Positions 1-16,478 of a DNA stretch of 17,779 bases are shown in pieces. The stretch's first letter is position 1; every line of letters starts with the position of its first letter. Position numbers and translations under genes: made by a program. The notes under the pieces were generated by a model, which did no database searches, was not told the origin of the DNA, and saw only the letters and a program-made list of their open reading frames with translations. Origin of the DNA: a phage; NCBI GenBank assembly GCA_030820665.1, contig GCA_030820665.1_4852.1; one strand, 5' to 3'.

Positions 1-168
1 GGAGTAAAAGGTGTGAGTTGGGATGCAGAGAAAAATAAATGGAAGGCGCATTGCAGGGTTTTTGGGAAAAAATATACAGTAGGTAGGTTTTCATCAAAAG
101 AATATGCTGAGAGAGCCGTGGCGGAGTTCAGAGAGAAACATCACGGGGAGTTTTTTAATCATGGCTAG
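1..168 (+). CDS. HNH-family homing endonuclease, C-terminal fragment (AP2-like DNA-binding domain); 5' end lies outside the window
   Basis: Frame 1 is open from base 1 to TAG at 166-168. The translation GVKGVSWDAEKNKWKAHCRVFGKKYTVGRFSSKEYAERAVAEFREKHHGEFFNHG closely parallels the C-termini of the two complete HNH proteins in this window (GIKGVNW...NKWHARVGVNGKRFTVGYFS...EFRRMHHNEF and SGVKDVVWD...RWRVQITANGKHYYGGRFSS). Confidence 0.65.
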   Translation, partial: GVKGVSWDAEKNKWKAHCRVFGKKYTVGRFSSKEYAERAVAEFREKHHGEFFNHG

Positions 169-1585
169 AAAAAGACTCTCAAGTGTGGCAATCGAAAAAC
201 TTGAACAGGCGGTTGGAAACTCAACTTCAAAGCCTGAGTCTGCTGTATTTGGCATTGTTAACAAACTGCTTGCCGATGGTACGCCTAATGTTATAAAGCG
301 CCTAAAAATGACATCAACAGGCGTATCTGAAACAAACGAAGAACCAACAATCCTCATTCCCGAGAGAATGGAATTACTGCTTTATCCTCGCCGTTTCAAA
401 GTGTTCTATGGAGGTAGGGGCAGCGGAAAGACGGCTAACGTTGTTTCTTACCTTATAGAAAAGGCAAGATTTCGCAACAGCCGCGTCGGATGCTTTCGTG
501 AGATACAGAACTCAATCAAAGAATCAAGCTATGCCGAACTGGTTGATGAGATAAACAGGAAAGGACACACTCAGGAATATCGTTGCGTGGATGGTGAAAT
601 AACCCACCATTCAACGAGGTCAAAGTTTGTTTTCCGTGGTTTGTGGCGAAATATAACCGCCATTAAGGGTATGGCTGGCCTTACAGATGTATTCTGTGAA
701 GAATCAGAAAATATCAGCCAGGTTTCATGGGATACGCTAATCCCAACAGTCCGCGCCGCTGGCTCTGAAATTATTATTGTTTTTAACCCAAACAAAGAGA
801 CGGACCCGACATGGACTAACTTTGTTGCGCCTTATATTGACAAGATGGTTGACGGCATATATCAGGATGATGACATCGTTGTTGTTAATGTTAATTACAT
901 CCACAACCCGTGGTTCACGGAAGAACTTAAGCAGCACATGAACCAGATGAAAGCTGTGGATTATGATCGCTACCTTTGGGTGTATGAAGGCTTATTCAAC
1001 AAGCGGTCTGACGAAGCTGTTCTCGGGGGGAAATGGCAAACACTCGACTTTGAACCATCTCCTGAGTGGGGTGGGCCTTACTACGGCATTGACTTTGGTT
1101 TTTCTCAGGATGCAACAGCAGCAACTGAATCATATGTAGAAGATTTGGGTGATGGACGAAGAAACCTGTATATCTATCGTGACTTTGCAAAGGTTGGCCT
1201 TGAGATAACTGACACGCCGGAAGCGATGCGCTCAGCATTCCCAAATTCAGAGAAGTACAGATGGTATGGGGATTGCGCAAGACCTGAAACAATAAGCCAT
1301 ATACGACGCTCTGGATTCGATATTCATCCGTGCGCAAAATGGCCGGGGAGCATTGAGGACGGTATTACGTGGCTGCGTGGGTGTGACAGGATTTACGTGC
1401 ACTCAAGATGCAGGCACGTCATTGAAGAGATGACAATGTACAGCTATAAGGTGGACAAATTAACAGGTAACATACTCCCTGATATAGTTGATAAATACAA
1501 TCACGCGATTGATAGTTTACGCTATGGACTTGGAGATCACATCGTTCAACGCGGTAGCGGGATGCTAATCCGGCGCAGGCGATAA
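161..1585 (+). CDS. Terminase large subunit (TerL)
   Basis: Long ORF (track 104-1585) with a Walker A P-loop, VFYGGRGSGKT. ATG at 161 is preferred because GGAG lies about 10 nt upstream; 104 and 308 are alternatives. Size and position upstream of the portal fit a packaging ATPase/nuclease. Confidence 0.88.
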   Translation: MARKRLSSVAIEKLEQAVGNSTSKPESAVFGIVNKLLADGTPNVIKRLKMTSTGVSETNEEPTILIPERMELLLYPRRFKVFYGGRGSGKTANVVSYLIEKARFRNSRVGCFREIQNSIKESSYAELVDEINRKGHTQEYRCVDGEITHHSTRSKFVFRGLWRNITAIKGMAGLTDVFCEESENISQVSWDTLIPTVRAAGSEIIIVFNPNKETDPTWTNFVAPYIDKMVDGIYQDDDIVVVNVNYIHNPWFTEELKQHMNQMKAVDYDRYLWVYEGLFNKRSDEAVLGGKWQTLDFEPSPEWGGPYYGIDFGFSQDATAATESYVEDLGDGRRNLYIYRDFAKVGLEITDTPEAMRSAFPNSEKYRWYGDCARPETISHIRRSGFDIHPCAKWPGSIEDGITWLRGCDRIYVHSRCRHVIEEMTMYSYKVDKLTGNILPDIVDKYNHAIDSLRYGLGDHIVQRGSGMLIRRRR

Positions 1586-1601
1586 ATCCGCATCACCACA
1601 C

Positions 1602-1633
1602 TTGACCAATCTACACCGAGCGCATAGTATAAT
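1602..1633 (+). promoter_or_regulatory. Candidate sigma70-type promoter for the small-gene cluster
   Basis: TTGACC at 1602-1607, 17-nt spacer, TAGTAT at 1625-1630 (overlapping a perfect TATAAT at 1628-1633); about 30 nt upstream of the ATG at 1662. Confidence 0.35.
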
Positions 1634-1661
1634 CTACATCAGGCTTATCGGAGATATCACT

Positions 1662-1868
1662 ATGCGCAGCTATGCAGGGTTCACACAGGAGGAGAAAGAG
1701 CAGGTTTATTCACTGGCTCGGGCTGGTGTGCCAGATGAGGTGATTTGCCGTCGGTATGACATCGACGAGGATTTCCTGCTGCGCGTTATTGATGATGTCT
1801 TCGTTAACCTGCAAGAGAAGCGCGGATATAAAGGTATCTGCTGCAAGAATGATTTTTTGAGAGGGTGA
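1662..1868 (+). CDS. Hypothetical small protein (68 aa)
   Basis: ATG 1662 with GGAG about 8 nt upstream; ends at TGA 1866-1868 inside the SD/start of the next gene. No recognisable motif. Confidence 0.5.
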   Translation: MRSYAGFTQEEKEQVYSLARAGVPDEVICRRYDIDEDFLLRVIDDVFVNLQEKRGYKGICCKNDFLRG

Positions 1869-1872
1869 TGTG

Positions 1873-2067
1873 ATGATTAAGATGAGCAAGATGAGCAACA
1901 GAAGCAAGGTTTGCAGGATTGCTTTATTGCCAATCTTCCTGCCTGTGTGGTTGTTATGGGTTTTATTTTCTGGGGCGAGAAATCTATTTGAGTATCTTGA
2001 ATTTTGTCAGGCAAAGGTTATACGAAAATTCCATGATGTCATTGATAAGTGGTTTCCGCTTGGTTGA
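1873..2067 (+). CDS. Hypothetical small membrane protein (one predicted TM helix)
   Basis: GTG 1870 / ATG 1873 follows GAGGGTGATGTG; hydrophobic stretch IALLPIFLPVWLLWVLF. Confidence 0.5.
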   Translation: MIKMSKMSNRSKVCRIALLPIFLPVWLLWVLFSGARNLFEYLEFCQAKVIRKFHDVIDKWFPLG

Positions 2068-2076
2068 GGTGATGTG

Positions 2077-2244
2077 ATGAAAATTGAAGAAACAGTTAAC
2101 TGCATGGCGATTAATGTGTTCACGGATTGCGATACCATTTGCGTGCAGGATTTCACTGGCGATTATGTCAGGATTGACAAACACCAAGCCGCGCAGCTAA
2201 TCGAAGTCCTGCAACGCTGGGTTAATGGTGAGGAAATTGAGTGA
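2077..2244 (+). CDS. Hypothetical small protein (55 aa; below the ORF-track cutoff)
   Basis: ATG 2077 preceded by GAGGTGATGTG. Translates MKIEETVNCMAINVFTDCDTICVQDFTGDYVRIDKHQAAQLIEVLQRWVNGEEIE. Its TGA (2242-2244) overlaps the next ATG (2244). Confidence 0.4.
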   Translation: MKIEETVNCMAINVFTDCDTICVQDFTGDYVRIDKHQAAQLIEVLQRWVNGEEIE

Positions 2245-2429
2245 TGAGTGTTTATTTCATTCATGGTGAAGTGCTTGATGGTGGTGATGTTGTTACCAAG
2301 GTTTGCGCGACATCTACGGCATCAAACGCCAGTGAAGCGTTTGATTGGTTTTTGGGTTGCGAATTGGTTGTAAAGTACGAAATAAAAGGCTACGACGTCA
2401 TCATTGATAAACTGGAAAAGGTGGAGTGA
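2244..2429 (+). CDS. Hypothetical small protein (61 aa)
   Basis: TGATG stop/start overlap with the upstream gene; ends at TGA 2427-2429, overlapping the next start. Confidence 0.5.
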   Translation: MSVYFIHGEVLDGGDVVTKVCATSTASNASEAFDWFLGCELVVKYEIKGYDVIIDKLEKVE

Positions 2430-2626
2430 TGCATTTCAAATCACTAAATACCATAAGGAACGAGATGGTTGGTGGCAAATATAAAAACCACAGAGACGAA
2501 GTAGTAACCGTTGTTAATGTTGTTGGCGCTGGCGGTGGTTATCAGGTCCATTTTAATTACGGCATGCCATACAATGTGGTTTGCGGACTTGGCAAGTTCA
2601 GGCAGCGATACCCGCATAAGGTTTAG
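2429..2626 (+). CDS. Hypothetical small protein (65 aa), glycine-rich beta-type
   Basis: GGTGGAGTGATG junction (SD plus overlapping stop/start); followed by the terminator at 2647-2677. Confidence 0.5.
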   Translation: MHFKSLNTIRNEMVGGKYKNHRDEVVTVVNVVGAGGGYQVHFNYGMPYNVVCGLGKFRQRYPHKV

Positions 2627-2640
2627 CCATATACCATCCA

Positions 2641-2649
2641 TGCTATAAT
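2641..2649 (+). promoter_or_regulatory. Candidate extended -10 promoter (TGcTATAAT) upstream of the portal gene
   Basis: TG at 2641-2642 and TATAAT at 2644-2649; weak -35. The -10 overlaps the left arm of the terminator hairpin. Confidence 0.3.
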
Positions 2650-2677
2650 CCCATCCAACGTGATGGGATTTTTTATT
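2647..2677 (+). terminator. Rho-independent terminator
   Basis: Perfect 9-bp stem AATCCCATC (2647-2655) / GATGGGATT (2662-2670), 6-nt loop, then a T-run. Confidence 0.7.
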
Positions 2678-2685
2678 GGTGACAT

Positions 2686-4098
2686 ATGTCAAAAATTGAT
2701 GCACTAAACGCTTATATACGCGACCGCGTAGCGAACAATAACCGGGCGATCCAGCAGCAACGGCTTTGCGCTGGCGGGAAGAATCTGGACCAGAAGCGAG
2801 AGTTCATGTGGAAGGAACTTGGCTACCCGCAGGAAATCACCGCCGAGATGTTCCGCTATGCCTATGAGCGACACCCAGCCGCCGCCGCTGGAATTAACCG
2901 CATTATTAATAAATGTTGGCAGAAATACCCTGAAGTTGTCGAAGATGGCGAGGATGACAAGAACTCAACGACATGGGAGCTGTCCATCAACGACATGATG
3001 AAGCGCGCCTACCCGTTCATCAAGGAGGCTGATAAGCGCAACGCCATCAACCGCTATTCCGCTGTTATCCTGCAAATCCGTGACGGCAAACAGTGGAGTG
3101 AGCCTGTAGACATTACAAAAACCCGCCGCATTAAAGATAAATCCATCGCTCGCTTTATTCCGGTATGGGAAGAGCAGCTACGCGTTAGCGCATGGAATAA
3201 CGACGAAACCAGCGAAGACTACGGAATGCCTGAGATGTACGAATATCAGGAAAGCGCCGTGGAGGACTTCGATAGCGATGGCAAGCCTGAGCGTTCCGTG
3301 CAGATTCACCCTGACCGCATCATCATTCTGGCTGAGGGTAGTTTTGACGGCAGTATGTTCAGTGGCATCCCGATGTTGCGTGCTGGCTACAATAGCCTTA
3401 TCGACATGGCTAAGGTTTCAGGTAGTTCAGCAGAAGGATTCCTGAAGAATGCCAGCCGTCAACTGGCTGTTAACTACACGAAGGACAACGTAACGCCAGC
3501 AAGCCTTGCGCAGTCTATGGGTGTCGATATTGAAGAACTCACTGACATCATGAATGAGAACATCGAAGCGCTAAACTCAGGCATCGACGCAGCTATGTTC
3601 ACAATGGGGGCGGATGCAAAGGTGCTTGCCGTAACGCCAGCCGACCCGAAACCAACATGGGAAGTGGCTGCCAACCAGTTCGCTGCATCAATGGCGCTTC
3701 CGTTCACCGTCATTTTTGGTCAGCAAACCGGACGCCTTGCGAGTGATGAGGACAAGATGCAGGAGGCGATGACAGCCAAGCAGCGCCGCGAAACGTGGGT
3801 TGATTATGTCATCTCAATGTTCGTTGAGCGCATGATTCAGTTCGGCATTGTCGATAAAGCACCGGCAAATGGCTACAAGGTTAAGTGGGATGATCTGCTT
3901 GCCCCATCAGAGCTGGATAAAGCTGAATTGCTGTCCAAGCTCGCCACTGCGAACAAGTCCTTCTTTGATGCTGGTCAATCTGCACTGCTGACCGTCGATG
4001 AAGCTCGCGGCATGGTTTGCATGGAGCCAATTGAACTTGACGAAAGCTATCGCGAAGACACACCGCCGGAAGACGAAAATGAAGATACTCCGGTTTAA
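2686..4098 (+). CDS. Portal protein (putative)
   Basis: 470-aa ORF immediately downstream of TerL and upstream of a MuF-like gene, with an acidic C-terminal tail ([11 protein letters not shown]). Called from size and gene order, not from a specific motif. Confidence 0.7.
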
Positions 4099-5029
4099 CG
4101 CAAGGCTACCCCAACCGCGCATATCGCAGAGCCTGACAGACCCGCTGGGTGCTGCGACTCGCCTGTCGAAGATGGATAAGGTGATAACGCGCAAATACAA
4201 ACAATTCAGGACTCGTGCTCTTGAGTTGTTTCGCACTATTCCGAACGGTCAGGCTAATGCAGAATCAAGCGGTCTGTATTTCTACGATTTCAGCAGTGCA
4301 CGGGCTGCCACTTTCATGGATGAGTTACAGGCGCTGATTGACGAGATTCTTCTTGAAGGTGATGATTTCGGTCACGGCAGGATGTGGGCCAATGTGTTCA
4401 TTGGTGATGCGTATCAGGCCGGAACACAAAAGGCTAACTCAGAACTGTCAAGCCTGTCTCCGGTTTACGCTGAGCAGAGGCCGATTGCCGCGATACTCTA
4501 CAGTGAGCCTTACCTGAATCGGCTCCAACTGGCTTATACGCAAGGTTACTCAGACTGGCGCGGATTGAGTGATTACTCCCGCCAGCAACTGGCATCTGTC
4601 ATTATGGAAGGCATTGCCCGTGGCGCTAATCCTCGCGATGTTGAAGCTGACATTGTTAAACGTGTTGATGTATCTCACAGCTACGCGAAACAGTTGGCGC
4701 AGACTGAAATAACCGGAACGCTACGTCAGGCTAACAGGCGGGAGGTCATTGAGGCGCGCGAAGAGTTAGGCATTGAGACGGTGATGCTGTGGCAATCGGC
4801 GTTGATGCGCACAACCCGCCAGACGCACGCAGCGCGACACGGACGGTTTTATACACCAGAAGAGATTGACACGTTTTATAGCGAGAATGGCAATAAATAT
4901 AATTGTCACTGTGCACAAACACCAGCATTGCTAATGGATGGGAAACCAGTCATTCTTGAATCCTCGCAGGAAAGGCTTGATAAACAGCGTGAAGCATGGC
5001 AATCAGTCAACAAAAAGCCCTCTAAGTGA
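4079..5029 (+). CDS. Head morphogenesis protein, MuF / SPP1 gp7-like (minor head protein)
   Basis: ORF track 3998-5029; the ATG at 4079 (MKILRF...) overlaps the portal stop by 20 nt. Position after the portal and about 315 aa fit the MuF-like family. Start is uncertain (4172 is an alternative). Confidence 0.65.
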
Positions 5030-5047
5030 GGGCTTGGTTTTGTCTTG
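5016..5047. terminator. Rho-independent terminator between convergent genes
   Basis: AGCCCTC (5016-5022) / GAGGGCT (5028-5034) stem with a 5-nt loop, followed by TGGTTTTGTCTTG. The stem overlaps the stop codon of the MuF-like gene. Confidence 0.6.
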
Positions 5048-5112
5048 TGAGCATACACAGAACAAATATTATTATCGCATAGCACAATATCTCTACGATG
5101 CTGAATATTGTT

Positions 5113-5757
5113 TTAATCATCCAGTTTCACGCCTGGAATTTTTCCTGCTGCAATGGCTTCATAAATTAGCTTGGCCTCGTCCTCGCGCCTGTAATCTTGA
5201 GCTGCCATTTCTAACACCGCGCAGATAGACTCAAGTACAGCCTCATGCTTCTTTTCTGCTTCTGTGCGTAGTGGTTTTAGGCTTTCCGGTACGAAGCAGC
5301 ATGACCGACCAGCACCACCTTCATCCCAATAGCAAACAGCCACATCGTTTCCGTCCGTTGTTGTCTTGTGCGCTACAACTTCCATTTCAGTGCCAGCATC
5401 AGGAATCCAGTCATTGCAGTATCCTAACTTTGGATTAAAGAAGAATTCTACTTTTGCACCAACTGGCGGCAGGCCTTCTCCATTCCATGTCTGCTTTTGC
5501 AATGCTGCTAGCGCGGATTCATACAAGTCGCGAGTTATCATACAATAATCCGTGGCTACGCTGACATAGCGACCGGGTATGGGGATTGCCACGGTGTACT
5601 GAAATGGCACATCAAAACCATCGCTATATCCCTTTGGGAAACAAAAAGCAATTGTGATACTGTCACCATTGAAATCACCAACTCGACACCTCTCAGCACC
5701 ATCAGGCCACCCACCACGCTTAGGTAATTCTTGAACTAACAGGTCGATAAGTTTCAT
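5113..5757 (-). CDS. Hypothetical protein (214 aa), distal gene of the minus-strand operon
   Basis: Uninterrupted minus-strand ORF; its start overlaps the stop of the upstream gene (5754-5757). No motif recognised. Confidence 0.65.
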   Translation of the reverse strand: MKLIDLLVQELPKRGGWPDGAERCRVGDFNGDSITIAFCFPKGYSDGFDVPFQYTVAIPIPGRYVSVATDYCMITRDLYESALAALQKQTWNGEGLPPVGAKVEFFFNPKLGYCNDWIPDAGTEMEVVAHKTTTDGNDVAVCYWDEGGAGRSCCFVPESLKPLRTEAEKKHEAVLESICAVLEMAAQDYRREDEAKLIYEAIAAGKIPGVKLDD

Positions 5758-8585: not shown

Positions 8586-8887
8586 TATTTAATCTCTCCG
8601 TTCAGTTCATTAACAATTAACGTTGCATAGCCAGCAATATCTTTCCAGCTGTCATCATAAGTCGGGTCGCCATTCAGAATGCGCCCAATCTTGTGCTGAA
8701 TCATGTCGAGCGCCTCGCGTTGACTTGGTGTGAGATTGCGCCAGCCATCTACCTTGCGCATCACATCTTTCAACTCCTGCATAATTTCAGCGCCGTCTTT
8801 GAATTTACCGTATCGACTACCGCGTTCGGTGATGAGTCGCTCTGTTGCGTCAGTATGGCGCTTATCGCCCGTGATTTGTGAACTCAT
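8585..8887 (-). CDS. Hypothetical protein (100 aa), probably all-alpha
   Basis: Minus ORF with SD GGAGAA. Translates MSSQITGDKRHTDATERLITERGSRYGKFKDGAEIMQELKD...SQREALDMIQHKIGRILNGDPTYDDSWKDIAGYATLIV. No confident family assignment. Confidence 0.55.
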   Translation of the reverse strand: MSSQITGDKRHTDATERLITERGSRYGKFKDGAEIMQELKDVMRKVDGWRNLTPSQREALDMIQHKIGRILNGDPTYDDSWKDIAGYATLIVNELNGEIK

Positions 8888-9374
8888 TGTGATGCATTCT
8901 CCTGAATTCTTTTATTTTTGCTTCTGCTTCTCTTATGTCGGAAAAGTAACCAACTGTGAATCTTTTGCCATTTACTCCAACTCTTGCATGCCACTTGTTG
9001 TGCGATGAACTCCAGTTAACCCCCTTGATACCGCTAGTGTTGTTTTTGTTCATTGCTTTGTTGTGGCTATTCTCAAATTTGCTGGCCTCCCTTAAATTGC
9101 ACGCCCTGTTGTCATTGCGAATGCCATTAATGTGGTCAATCATTTCACTTGCTGGCGCGCCATGAATGCATATCCATGCCAATCTGTGAGCAAGAAAAGC
9201 CCTACCGCAAAGAATTATTTGCACATATCCATCTGGCTTTAAGTAGCCAGCCACACTCCCTTTTTCTGCAATCCTATTCCTTGTCTTTAGCCATTTAAAT
9301 TCCCCAGTTAGTGGATTGTAGTAAAGGTAACTCAATATAAACTCCCTACTCGGCTCATCTCTCCTATGCCTCAT
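8862..9374 (-). CDS. HNH homing endonuclease (HNH_3-type core with AP2-like C-terminal domain)
   Basis: Motifs YNPLTGEFKW, HRLAWICIHG, IDHINGIRNDNRACNLR and C-terminal SGIKGVNWSSSHNKWHARVGVNGKRFTVGYFSDIREAEAKIKEF. The region looks AT-richer than the flanking sequence. Confidence 0.85.
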   Translation of the reverse strand: MRHRRDEPSREFILSYLYYNPLTGEFKWLKTRNRIAEKGSVAGYLKPDGYVQIILCGRAFLAHRLAWICIHGAPASEMIDHINGIRNDNRACNLREASKFENSHNKAMNKNNTSGIKGVNWSSSHNKWHARVGVNGKRFTVGYFSDIREAEAKIKEFRRMHHNEFTNHGR

Positions 9375-9934: not shown

Positions 9935-10129
9935 ATGGCGCATGACGAACTGTACGAAGAATCGTTAATCCAGAGGTTGAATGAAGTTGAGCGCACTCGC
10001 GAATGGCTGGAGTGCGAGTTACGAGAAGTGCGCAACCGCCTGCAACGCAAGCGCAGTCAGCAAAGAGATGTCATCGACTGGTCTGGGGGTACACCTAAAT
10101 TTAACAATCTGGGAGAATGGTTGAAATGA
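9935..10129 (+). CDS. Hypothetical protein (64 aa), charged, probably helical
   Basis: GGGAGA SD; its stop overlaps the start of the downstream HNH gene. Confidence 0.45.
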   Translation: MAHDELYEESLIQRLNEVERTREWLECELREVRNRLQRKRSQQRDVIDWSGGTPKFNNLGEWLK

Positions 10130-10656
10130 GCAACATTAGTAAGGAAAGCATTTTAAAGTTCCTCCAGCATGATGAAAATACAGGAAACTTTCTATGGATT
10201 GATAATTTCTCAAGAAAATCAAAGAAAGGGAAGGTGGCTGGAGGTATTACATCGCATGGGTATTGGAGAATTCAACTCCCCATCGGGAGGTTTTACGCAC
10301 ACAGAATGGCGTGGATTGTTTGCAATGGAGATATACCAAACGGATATGAGATTGATCACATAAATGGGAACAAGAAAGATAATCGCATCAGCAACCTAAG
10401 ATTGGTCACAAGAGGTCAAAATGTTATGAATGTAGGCGTGAAAAACAATAATACAAGCGGAGTTAAGGATGTTGTTTGGGACTCTTCGCGAGAAAGGTGG
10501 AGGGTTCAAATTACAGCCAATGGCAAGCATTATTATGGAGGTAGATTCTCGTCAATAACACAAGCAAAAGAGGAGAGGAACAGGCTCATAAAGATGGTTC
10601 ACGGGAAATTTTTGAATACAAAAGGTGAGCAATATGACACTACTAATGAACGATGA
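10126..10656 (+). CDS. HNH homing endonuclease (HNH_3-type core with AP2-like C-terminal domain)
   Basis: Motifs ENTGNFLW, HRMAWIVCNG, IDHINGNKKDNRISNLR and SGVKDVVWDSSRERWRVQITANGKHYYGGRFSS; paralogous to 8862-9374 and to the fragment at 1-168. Start is 10126 or 10117. Confidence 0.85.
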   Translation: MSNISKESILKFLQHDENTGNFLWIDNFSRKSKKGKVAGGITSHGYWRIQLPIGRFYAHRMAWIVCNGDIPNGYEIDHINGNKKDNRISNLRLVTRGQNVMNVGVKNNNTSGVKDVVWDSSRERWRVQITANGKHYYGGRFSSITQAKEERNRLIKMVHGKFLNTKGEQYDTTNER

Positions 10657-12672: not shown

Positions 12673-14088
12673 ATGATTGTCAAGATTGGCGATAAGTGGG
12701 TGGTCAAGTCGAAAGACGGCTCACAGCAATTTGGTGAATACGACACAGAAGAGGCAGCAAAAAAACGCCTCGCAGAAGTCGAAGCGTTTAAGCACATGAA
12801 TAATAAATTGCAGGTTAACGTCCTGACAACCATCAATTCAGCCAGCAATATCAGTGAGCAAATCATTGATGGCGACCCGCACTACGTAATTAAAAACGTC
12901 GTGCCAGTGGTTGATGATGTTGTGATGAATAACGGCCTGTATCCGGGAGAGGAAATCCGCAAGAGCTATCACGGACTTGATGGTAAACCTGCACCATACA
13001 ATCACCCGATGATTGACGGTAAATATGTCTCTGCAAGCATGACGCGCGCAGCTAACCAGTTCAGCGTTGGCGCATGGATTGAAAACTCATCTCATGACGG
13101 CAGCAAGGCGCTGGTTGACCTGAAGGTAAACAAAGTCATCGCTGAACGCTCCGAGAAAGGTCAGGAGTTGCTTGGTCGCATTGAAGCGCTAATGAACTCC
13201 GCAGAAGGCGCAGAGCCAATCCATGTATCCACCGGCTTATTGCTCAACCGCGAGGCTACGGAAGGCACAAGCAAAGGCAAAAAATACACATGGATTGCGC
13301 GCAACATGGAATGGGACCATCTCGCCATCCTGCCGCCGGGAGTGCCAGGAGCTGGAACGCCAGAAGATGGTGTTGGAATCTTTGCCACCAACGGCGAGCA
13401 AATCGAACGCATCACCGTAAACCTTGAGGACTCAACCGTGCCAGACGAAAGCGCCAACAAGATTAATTATAAATCGTGGCTACATAAGGCCATCAACTAC
13501 ATCACCAACAAATCAGATTTGTCGTTTGAGAACATCAGTGAGCAGATTCGCCAGATTCTGAAGGCTGAAGTTGGCGAGGATGTCTGGCCTTATATTGTGG
13601 CTGTGTACGACGACCGCGTCGGATTTGAAATCAAAGGCCAGATTTTTCAGCAGCTCTACATCGTTGAAGATGATGTGGTAAAATTGGTCGGTGAGCGGGT
13701 CAAGGCTGTTTATAAAACTGAACTTGAGCCGGTAAAATCAACTGAAGGGGAAATCTCAATGACGAACGAGGAATTACAAGCGGCAGTAGCGGAAGCTACC
13801 AAGTTGGCCGTTAATGAAGCCCTCAAGCCGGTTCAGGAAAAGCTTGATTCCGTCACTGCTGAACTGACCGATGTTAAAGGCAAGCTCGCAGCCAACGCCG
13901 AGCAGGAAGAAACCGCGATGCGTGCTGCTATCATCGCGGAACTGAAACTGCCGGAATCCGCTGTGAATGCGCTGAAAGGCGAAGCACTGCGTGAAACCTA
14001 TGCGTTGACCAGCAAGCCTGCTGCGCTGAAGGGTGGCTTCCAGCCGAACCACGCTGATGACGATTTTGATATGGAGGCACCGGAATAA
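12673..14088 (+). CDS. Putative prohead scaffold / head maturation protein (C-terminal coiled-coil domain)
   Basis: ORF track 12595-14088; ATG 12673 follows GGAGAG. The C-terminal ~110 aa ([48 protein letters not shown]...) is scaffold-like. Position immediately upstream of the small head protein and capsid gene. Confidence 0.55.
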
Positions 14089-14573
14089 TGGCTACTATCC
14101 GTTATGGCACCATCATTGGTGGTCCAGCTCGCAAGAACGACCCGCAGATTCGCGAAGGCATCATGAAGGTCGCGTTGAAGCCGGGCGCACTGGTTGACTT
14201 CGATACTGCCTCCTCAATTCGTTCCAATTATGACAAAATCATCGCACACGCTACCGCTGGCGGTCAGGGATTCCCTTACGTGCTTCAGCATAACTATCTC
14301 GGTGGTGGCGATGTATCTGAATCAGTTCCTGCTAATGCTACTGGCATGGCTGTGCAGTGCGAATTTGGCGTCACCTATCACGCACTGGTTGCTGCATCTT
14401 CCGAGCTGAAGAAAGGCACCCCGTTGGCAAGTAATGGTACTGGCGCGCTGAAAGTTGCTGGTAATAGGGATAACATCCTGTTCTATTCTTATGAAACTTA
14501 CACCGTTGCCTCTGATGGCGCTGAGCTGGTTGCAGTTCGTCGCGCTGGCAATGCTTCCATGCCTGCGGCGTAA
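14088..14573 (+). CDS. Putative head decoration / auxiliary capsid protein (161 aa)
   Basis: TAATG overlap with the scaffold stop; lies between the scaffold-like gene and the capsid gene; Gly/Ala/Thr-rich, beta-type composition. Confidence 0.45.
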
Positions 14574-14584
14574 GGAGCCGAATA

Positions 14585-15658
14585 ATGGAAAAGATTATTT
14601 TTACCAAAGACTTGGTAGCCAACTCCGCAGTGGTGGCTGACCAGTGGAAACATCTCACCATCGACCGCAAGGTGTTCTGCAATGCAGAAGCTGAACTGGC
14701 GAAAACATACGGTGTTAACGCCACCGCGCTGGTAACGAAAGATTACTGGCGCGACGTGGATAACGTCACCACCCGTGTTTTCCGCAACGAAGCTGGCCAG
14801 GACATGATGGCTGACCTGATGGGTATCGCGGCAAACATTAACATTGGTAAGACTGTGGCAATCAGCCGCATTGCTTCCGATGCTGGCAAGGTAGTCCGCA
14901 CTCTGTCTGGTCAGGAGCCGGAAGACTTGGATAAAACTCGCTACGATTACACTGGCGACGTGATTCCAATCTTCAAAACTGGCTACAGCCGCGAATGGCG
15001 CGAACTGCTGGGTATGCAGTCTGAAGGTTTTGACCCCCTGCTGGACGATCAGGCTAACGTCACCTTTAACCTACGTTCCGACATGGCGCAGTATCTGCTG
15101 ACCGGCGACCAGACTCTGAACGTGAACGGCGTTTACACTGGCTACGGTATCACCAACCACCCGAACACCATTCAGGTCGACCTGAACGTTTCCAATGGCA
15201 GCCTGAAGATCGACCTGCAAACCGCAACGCCAGATGAAATCGTGAAATTCTTCAATCAGGATTTCCAGGCTATTCTGGATGCGCAGAACGTATTTGAGCA
15301 GGTGACTCTGTGGGTTTCCCCGGCAGTGCGTCGCAGTTTCATGCGTCCGTATTCTGATGCGGCTGGCTTCAAAGGCGGCACGGTTGAGCAGTACATCACG
15401 CAGTTCGGTAATGGTCGCATTGGTAAGATTGGCACCAACTTCCTGCTGACTGGCAACCATTTCGTTGGTTACGTTCGCAACGACATGTACATCCGTCCGC
15501 GTGTTGCTCAGCCTGTCTCCACCTATGCGGCAGCTCGCACCAACCCGCACGATAACTTTAACTTCCTCGTATGGTCTGCTTTCGGTCTGCAGATTCGCAA
15601 GGATGCCGCTGGAAAAAGCCGCGTCTTTAATTGCTATGGTAGCCAGAAAGCTAAATAA
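14585..15658 (+). CDS. Major capsid protein (putative)
   Basis: 357-aa ORF with a strong AAGGAG SD, last gene of the scaffold-decoration-capsid block, followed by a strong terminator. Confidence 0.65.
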   Translation: MEKIIFTKDLVANSAVVADQWKHLTIDRKVFCNAEAELAKTYGVNATALVTKDYWRDVDNVTTRVFRNEAGQDMMADLMGIAANINIGKTVAISRIASDAGKVVRTLSGQEPEDLDKTRYDYTGDVIPIFKTGYSREWRELLGMQSEGFDPLLDDQANVTFNLRSDMAQYLLTGDQTLNVNGVYTGYGITNHPNTIQVDLNVSNGSLKIDLQTATPDEIVKFFNQDFQAILDAQNVFEQVTLWVSPAVRRSFMRPYSDAAGFKGGTVEQYITQFGNGRIGKIGTNFLLTGNHFVGYVRNDMYIRPRVAQPVSTYAAARTNPHDNFNFLVWSAFGLQIRKDAAGKSRVFNCYGSQKAK

Positions 15659-15660
15659 TA

Positions 15661-15687
15661 AAAAAGGGGGTTTATCCCCCTTCTTTG
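15661..15687. terminator. Rho-independent bidirectional terminator
   Basis: AAAAAGGGGG-TTTAT-CCCCCTTCTTTG: GGGGG/CCCCC stem (15666-15670 / 15676-15680) with an A-run upstream and T-run downstream. The minus-strand gene's stop (15672-15674) lies in the loop. Confidence 0.8.
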
Positions 15688-16478
15688 TATCTAATTTCAC
15701 CGTAAACCATGTACTGTAACATGTAACAAAACTCCCATTCCGTCATATCTGTCCGTAGCCACTTCCTGTTCTTCTTGTAATTGTACTCCGCCAGCTCCGC
15801 TTTTAAATTGTGAAGAGCATTAACCAGTTCTGGATATACGAGGTTATTCTTAACAAACCAGTTGACAGATAAAATATGGTCAATATGCCAATTATTGCGG
15901 TCATCAAAACTCATCCATGGAAGCATGGTTGATTTTATATGCTTAATGAAATCATCCTTTGAGTACCCGAGAACATCATCTACTGTTCTATCAAGCGCAA
16001 TGTCAGATACTCTCATATCAAGCCGCTCAAGCATTTTTCTTAGGAACACGTGGTGTGGGTGCTTCTTTTGCCATTGCCTGACATTATCCAGAGCCTTTTT
16101 ATTGCCTTTCTCTGAGTAGTACCATCTGCGATAAGCTTCCCTTTTCTTTTGTAAAAACTCCTCCTTTTTCTCTGGATTCTCGTTAAGCCTTTGCATCTTC
16201 CTTTTGTTGTACTCCTGTTGTGATTGTTTTCTTTTCTTTTTGTACTCGCTGTTATCCTTGTTTTTCTGCCACTCCTTTTTTCTGTACTCACTTTCCTTGC
16301 GTTTGCGCTCCTCTGTTGTTCTCTGCTTCCTTGTTCTTTCGTATACGCAATGCTTGCATCCGCCTGATGCTGTAAAAAACACAGTTCCACCACATACAGA
16401 GCATGGAATCCATTCACACACAAATTGCTTCAGTCCAGCAACCCTTGCTTCTTGCGCGGCTTCTTTTCTTGTTTTCAT
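15672..16478 (-). CDS. Zinc-ribbon protein with Lys/Arg/Glu-rich repeat linker and a C-terminal HNH-like motif (putative nuclease)
   Basis: 268-aa minus ORF with a strong SD (AGGAGTG). N-terminal CEWIPCSVCGG...GGCKHC; central low-complexity basic region with reiterated SEYRKK/SEYKKKRK/QEYNKRK; C-terminal NNWHIDHILSVNWF...NALHNL resembling an HNH core. Confidence 0.65.
   Translation of the reverse strand: MKTRKEAAQEARVAGLKQFVCEWIPCSVCGGTVFFTASGGCKHCVYERTRKQRTTEERKRKESEYRKKEWQKNKDNSEYKKKRKQSQQEYNKRKMQRLNENPEKKEEFLQKKREAYRRWYYSEKGNKKALDNVRQWQKKHPHHVFLRKMLERLDMRVSDIALDRTVDDVLGYSKDDFIKHIKSTMLPWMSFDDRNNWHIDHILSVNWFVKNNLVYPELVNALHNLKAELAEYNYKKNRKWLRTDMTEWEFCYMLQYMVYGEIRYKEGG

Follow-up and report, generated by a model that had tools for sequence, protein, structure and literature searches.

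In a 17,779-nucleotide (nt) stretch of phage DNA (contig GCA_030820665.1_4852.1 of GenBank assembly GCA_030820665.1; below, the window), the open reading frame (ORF) at 12673..14088 on the plus strand, encoding 471 amino acids (aa; 51.8 kDa), probably makes two co-terminal proteins: a fusion of a capsid-maturation protease and a scaffold, and a nested scaffolding protein translated from a conserved internal start at 13759. An earlier note on this DNA had proposed the nested gene from the sequence alone. In the model that we put forward, the late mRNA would be translated from 12673 into a 52-kDa protein in which a serine protease with the fold of T4 gp21 and herpesvirus assemblin is joined to a helical C-terminal domain, and ribosomes would also initiate independently at the ribosome-binding site and ATG of 13759, giving the 109-aa helical domain alone. 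As scaffolding protein, the 109-aa product would help the capsid protein to assemble into the procapsid. Because the long product ends in this same part, by which it would bind the capsid protein, a few copies of it would be built into each procapsid; the protease would then digest the scaffold and itself, and the shell would be emptied for DNA packaging. The observations concern the translation signals, their conservation and constraint at the nucleotide level, the protease fold, the helical C terminus, and the gene context; initiation at 13759, the ratio of the two products, the function as scaffold, and proteolytic cleavage are inferred.

Signals for an internal start at position 13759

The ORF likely starts at ATG 12673, which is preceded by the Shine-Dalgarno (SD) sequence tGGAGAG, and its stop codon ends at 14088. 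ATG 13759-13761 is codon 363 of the 471 and is in frame. As the earlier note had pointed out, it has a good SD sequence, GAAGGGG (13744..13750, plus strand), with an 8-nt spacer. The SD/anti-SD duplex energy is -7.9 kcal/mol, which is in the top 3.8% of 398 plus-strand ATGs, stronger than at the ORF's own start (-6.4 kcal/mol), and close to that of the capsid gene (-8.4 kcal/mol). Only two of the 10 in-frame methionine codons, M1 and M363, have an SD sequence. The mRNA is also open at this site: a 60-nt segment at 13759 folds at -4.0 kcal/mol compared with a gene mean of -12.4 kcal/mol, placing it among the least structured 2.2%, and low structure around the internal ATG is likewise seen in 61 of 65 distant relatives. 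The predicted nested gene (13759..14088, plus strand) would encode a 109-aa helical scaffolding protein of 11.6 kDa with an isoelectric point of 4.5, having its C terminus in common with the protease. Its composition (Ala 20%, Glu 14%, Leu 11%, and Lys 8%) agrees with the Ala/Glu/Lys-rich C terminus described in the earlier note.

We compared the gene with a close set of 74 loci from viral contigs, with 70 to 94% protein identity to the window protein (75 distinct sequences compared), and with a distant clade of 64 further loci obtained by a profile-based scan, with 36 to 62% identity. The ATG and the SD motif are kept across all 139 related loci (75 close and 64 distant). In the close set, ATG together with AAGGGG or AAGAGG is present in 75 of 75 distinct sequences; the AAGAGG of one sequence is a Gly-to-Glu change with which the SD sequence is still formed. 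Synonymous codon entropy has a gene mean of 0.72 bits and falls to 0 in the 9-codon windows over codons 353 to 363, the lowest of 463 windows. These 11 codons (13729..13761, plus strand) are the longest run in the gene without synonymous change, the next longest having 5 codons, and in this clade only 14.6% of degenerate codon columns lack synonymous change at all. In the distant clade, ATG is found at the aligned column in 64 of 64 loci, preceded by GGAG, AAGGA, or GAGG, and the codon window ending at the methionine is, independently, the one with the least synonymous variation among 381. The glycine codon before the internal ATG is GGA in 52 of 52 distant-clade sequences, and GGA is the rarest glycine codon of these genes (9.7%). 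The residues before the methionine vary (NGE, NKE, TEG, NEE, SEE, and QEA), and every version spells an SD sequence.

The signal extends to still more divergent phages. In ES18 gp7, Pseudomonas phage JBD44 gp22, and Vibrio phage phiV208, which are about 29 to 31% identical to the window protein, the equivalent methionine is preceded by GGAGGGCGAC, and no other in-frame SD of the gene is as strong as this internal one (-10.0 to -12.2 kcal/mol). Sinorhizobium phage phiLM21, Pseudoalteromonas phage XCL1123, and Brevundimonas phage StAshley have an SD sequence and ATG where the helical C-terminal part starts. The StAshley gene (L150, 2839-4545) has a very strong in-frame SD and ATG at codon 241 (AAGGAGG, -11.4 kcal/mol), directly behind the protease domain, and another at codon 391, ahead of the C-terminal part, which suggests that it encodes more than one nested product.

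The conserved SD and ATG, the synonymous constraint, and the open mRNA together characterize a translation initiation region that lies within coding sequence. The earlier note held that its proposal would fail if no initiation signal were present at 13759; at the sequence level the signal is there, with SD and ATG conserved down to about 29% identity, a synonymous minimum in two clades, and unfolded mRNA.

These features also bear on a simpler explanation, in which only the 471-aa fusion is made, as for P2 gpO, with scaffold and protease in one polypeptide, and in which the methionine and the acidic and glycine residues before it are kept for protein-level reasons, such as a role in a linker or in cleavage. 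The fusion ORF is continuous in 139 of 139 loci, and a second product is annotated in none of the records that we sampled or inspected, as this explanation would have it. Selection on the protein does not explain, however, the complete lack of synonymous change over 11 codons, and the exclusive use of a rare GGA codon, the amino-acid replacements that all preserve the SD sequence, and the locally unfolded mRNA are also left without explanation; moreover, the structure model shows this linker as disordered, and its sequence is poorly conserved outside the motif. We therefore consider a single product unlikely.

Nucleotide constraint could also have another purpose: an internal promoter, as for herpesvirus UL26.5 or T4 gene 17, an SD-like pause that aids folding, or a joint for module exchange. 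Weak resemblance to a promoter is seen at two sites, 50 and 104 nt before 13759, the lowered synonymous variation spans codons 333 to 367, and in the lineage of the window a divergent cassette starts a few codons after the ATG. The promoter-like hexamers, however, are present in only 31 to 36 of 75 close relatives and in 0 of 52 distant ones, and they are not more numerous than expected from shuffled sequence. No conserved promoter was thus found upstream of 13759 in these two sets, and an internal sigma-70 promoter was rejected. A pause site or a recombination joint, for its part, needs no ATG at fixed SD spacing in every lineage. All three variants appear very improbable, and an internal start that yields a second protein remains the reading that we prefer.

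Domains of the long protein

An AlphaFold model of the long protein, built on a 46-sequence alignment, divides it into several parts. An optional N-terminal module (residues 1 to about 41; 12673..12795, plus strand) consists of beta-hairpins and a helix, has a predicted local distance difference test score (pLDDT) of about 90, and matches phrog_3684; it is absent from Jersey-type relatives, whose matches start at residue 44. The protease domain follows (residues 58 to 224; 12844..13344, plus strand; pLDDT 70 to 90), then a disordered linker, a middle alpha/beta domain (residues 281 to 344; 13513..13704, plus strand), which is missing in some family members, and a second disordered linker (residues 344 to 363), which holds the initiation region and is poorly conserved away from the initiation motif. 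A predicted helix of 60 residues (365 to 424; 13765..13944, plus strand) comes next, and the model ends with two short helices and a disordered tail. The internal methionine thus closes a flexible linker, and the long helix begins two residues after it. The earlier note had treated the N-terminal 360 aa as one domain, a view that does not hold for a region made up of an optional module, a protease, a small alpha/beta domain, and linkers. Part of the long helix (13783-13896, residues about 371 to 408) has only about 52% identity to relatives that are 98 to 100% identical on either side of it. This patch resembles a heptad-scale insertion/deletion or a swapped cassette starting just after the internal ATG, and the window's version of it is shared with a few database proteins (P0001-P0007).

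His111, Ser186, and Asp215-His216 of the protease domain are invariant in the family, and the fold matches the T4 gp21/herpesvirus assemblin type, a class that includes T4 gp21, HK97 gp4, and herpesvirus assemblin. The protease or assembly fold whose absence the earlier note would have taken as a refutation is thus found in the N-terminal part. Using hhalign, the segment "VVMNNGLYP...YNH111P" was placed on "VVNRNKRLYP...LNH85P" of gp21, which equates His111 with gp21 His85, with weak statistics (E 0.11). Ser186 (HVSTGL) resembles VS140SRGL of gp21 at the motif level only, with a register that is uncertain by one residue; the N-terminal half of a naive global alignment with gp21 is unreliable. 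We also considered a protease of the lambda gpC type (S49/ClpP-like), and no such Pfam or NCBIfam match was found; the fold fits gp21/assemblin instead. The model and the invariant residues support the assignment of the long ORF as a putative capsid-maturation (prohead) serine protease with a helical C terminus fused to it by flexible linkers.

The long protein belongs to phrog_760, which is labelled as of unknown function. The Pfam and NCBIfam searches gave no significant family for it, and searches of PDB sequences with the protein and with the family profile returned coiled-coil noise only. Pfam DUF2213 (PF09979) is matched by the window protein with 15.8 bits (E 0.014) over residues 181 to 225 only, below the gathering threshold of 22 bits. 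DUF2213 is matched at E<=0.1 by 14 of 41 relatives, and some relatives have precomputed PF09979 matches or "DUF2213" names at NCBI. By sequence comparison, the window protein is a distant relative of DUF2213 and, by the threshold, not a member.

Proposed role of the short product

A scaffold role of the short product is supported by its predicted helicity, its gene context, and the absence of another scaffold gene, and we infer the role from these three. Neither the genes of the window nor the family searches gave a recognizable scaffold-like gene in the head module other than the C-terminal domain. The major capsid protein has 357 aa and is therefore without a long N-terminal delta domain of the HK97 type. 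With no other candidate in the head module and no space for a delta domain in the capsid protein, only the helical C-terminal domain is left as a candidate scaffold. The same facts speak against a different role, in which the short protein is made and acts as a regulator or inhibitor of the protease by competing for the shared C-terminal binding site, or as a helper of portal or decoration protein. The nested gene, moreover, occupies the position of Nu3 in lambda and of Z in Mu, and such a non-scaffold role seems quite improbable to us.

The earlier note had expected a stoichiometric excess of scaffold over the full-length protein. From the SD strengths, such an excess is plausible and no firmer than that, because the SD sequence of the best upstream start is no stronger than the internal one in 63 of the 65 distant relatives, whereas among the 74 close relatives this is true of only 38.

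Several points weigh against a nested scaffold gene. The nested coding sequence is annotated in 0 of 9 inspected records and in 0 of a sample of 60 from the 231 phage records in which the C-terminal domain occurs. Proteomics, ribosome profiling, or an N-terminal sequence for any family member was not found in the literature, of which the ES18 genome paper was not covered, and the C-terminal domain was not found as a natural separate gene among database proteins. For a scaffold, 109 aa is small; in the prophage-like clade about 11 nt separate SD and ATG, a long spacing; and because the sequences within each clade are related, there are fewer independent observations than the conservation counts suggest.

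Six short database proteins were considered as stand-alone versions of the C-terminal domain and rejected; they include proteins from a Logan contig with several frameshifts (L151), from a JGI contig in which the 5' part of the gene is duplicated in inverted orientation (L152), and from a contig end (L153), all three of them artefacts.

Comparison with known protease/scaffold systems

The earlier note had compared the arrangement with C/Nu3 of lambda. In GenBank, lambda nu3 (5132..5737) is annotated inside C (4418..5737), followed by D and E. As in lambda, the long ORF of the window would be a protease gene from which an in-frame internal start gives a co-terminal scaffold, and the counterparts of D and E come directly after it. 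The proteins themselves differ: lambda C is annotated as an S49 peptidase, whereas the protease here has the gp21/assemblin fold, and Nu3 has 201 aa compared with 109 aa, with no sequence similarity. The analogy thus holds for layout and gene order (C/Nu3-D-E) and is functional, not homologous.

Phage Mu offers a second comparison. Its Z (also p20) gene (18590..19141) is annotated in GenBank inside the protease gene I (18056..19141), followed by T, so that here too a protease gene with an annotated internal in-frame start lies just upstream of the capsid gene. With hhalign, the family motif "NGExNPMKE" falls on Mu I residues 172 to 193, centered on Met179, which is the start of Z, in a match that is not significant. 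The initiation regions of the two look alike (GGAGAACAAACCCATG versus GGAGAAACAAACCCGATG). The Mu Z region (L146, phage Mu, 4067-4093) reads caGGAGAACAAACCCATG, with the protein sequence MNETLRKLLARLGV, and a prophage-like clade (L082 and related loci) has acGGAGAAACAAACCCGATG, encoding MKEKMIAALNAAGV, which resembles Mu Z and is aligned in register by hhalign, again without significance. Because the alignment is not significant, we hold the likeness to Mu Z only as a lead.

In herpesviruses, an assemblin-scaffold fusion is made at a low level together with an abundant nested scaffold (PMC11565193). The window gene would share with herpesvirus UL26/UL26.5 both the nested protease/scaffold layout and the assemblin protease fold. 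The means of expression differs, since herpesviruses use a separate nested transcript and the phage gene likely relies on ribosomes binding at an internal site of a single mRNA. In architecture the gene resembles UL26/UL26.5 and Mu I/Z more closely than lambda C/Nu3; the gene order is lambda-like, and the protease fold is that of herpesviruses and T4. One could go further and take the fusion and nested-scaffold layout on an assemblin-fold protease as an ancient feature common to tailed phages and herpesviruses, and not as something invented repeatedly, with the nested scaffold homologous to Mu gpZ. What hints at this is the placement of the family motif on the start of Mu Z and the near identity of the two initiation regions. 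We regard this extension as doubtful; if it were true, the family would be a tractable bacterial model of the UL26/UL26.5 system.

Phages P2 and T4 are less similar in layout. P2 gpO reportedly has an N-terminal protease and a C-terminal scaffold in one polypeptide, a fusion like that of the window ORF; it is not known to have an internal start, unlike the window family, in which one is conserved. The T4 scaffold proteins (gp22), in contrast, come from separate genes, and T4 gp21 has only 17% identity to the window protease. An internal in-frame start is annotated in T4 gene 21 (L147, 7515-8087) and gives a slightly shorter protease.

Annotation and significance

The phrog_760/DUF2213-related family has 4493 cluster representatives at E<=0.001, with labels that vary among "coat," "portal," and "hypothetical." The literature on DUF2213, on Guernseyvirinae scaffolds, and on internal-start scaffolds, the ES18 genome paper not being covered, had nothing on this gene family. 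A nested scaffold in the family is well supported by the comparative evidence given above, and it would give a concrete role to a widespread group of phage and prophage genes (phrog_760 and the DUF2213 relatives) whose present labels are wrong or give no function. It would also indicate where the missing scaffold of Jersey/K1G-like (Guernseyvirinae), ES18-like, and JBD44-like siphophages is encoded, among them several phages in use for biocontrol and therapy. A nested gene of this kind is beyond the reach of standard gene callers. A scaffold nested in a protease gene is in itself a classical idea, which should leave specialists satisfied rather than surprised; the family would add a bacterial example that agrees with the herpesvirus protease/scaffold system in protease fold as well as in gene layout.

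Head genes of the window

The window is about 91 to 93% identical in DNA sequence to Jersey/K1G-like siphophages of Salmonella and Escherichia coli (ST1UNAM, VSt472, C1, and Bas77-81). The protease/scaffold ORF lies directly upstream of the decoration and major capsid genes, the position by which nested protease/scaffold pairs are recognized. Its stop codon is overlapped by the ATG of the head decoration gene (14088..14573, plus strand; phrog_766), after which comes the major capsid protein gene (14585..15658, plus strand; phrog_771), with DUF6260 over residues 45 to 349. The order protease/scaffold, decoration, capsid is common to ES18, JBD44, and phages of Mannheimia, Vibrio, Sinorhizobium, Pseudoalteromonas, and Brevundimonas.

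The other head genes are those of the large terminase (104..1585), the portal (2686..4098), and an SPP1-gp7-like head morphogenesis protein (3998..5029). The first ATG of the morphogenesis ORF overlaps the portal gene by 101 nt (3998-4098), and its family match starts at residue 26; the true start probably lies further downstream. The head module of the window is thus split into two groups, 104-5029 and 12673-15658, about 7.6 kb apart, unlike in ES18, JBD44, and the Mannheimia phage, where the two are contiguous. The spacer between 5029 and 12673 holds a lysis cassette, several small genes in opposite orientation, and endonuclease genes, among them an HNH endonuclease gene (10117-10656; Pfam HNH_3, E 3e-20) at a place occupied in ST1UNAM by small ORFs only. 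A second gene, on the minus strand (8862-9374), matches, by size and position, a gene of ST1UNAM annotated as homing-endonuclease-like, and both genes are likely mobile insertions.

An Rfam search of the window gave no match. Downstream of the capsid gene, a GC-rich hairpin (15660-15686) with T-runs on both strands lies between that gene and a convergent endonuclease-VII-like gene (15672-16478, minus strand), and is a probable bidirectional terminator that overlaps the 3' end of the minus-strand gene.
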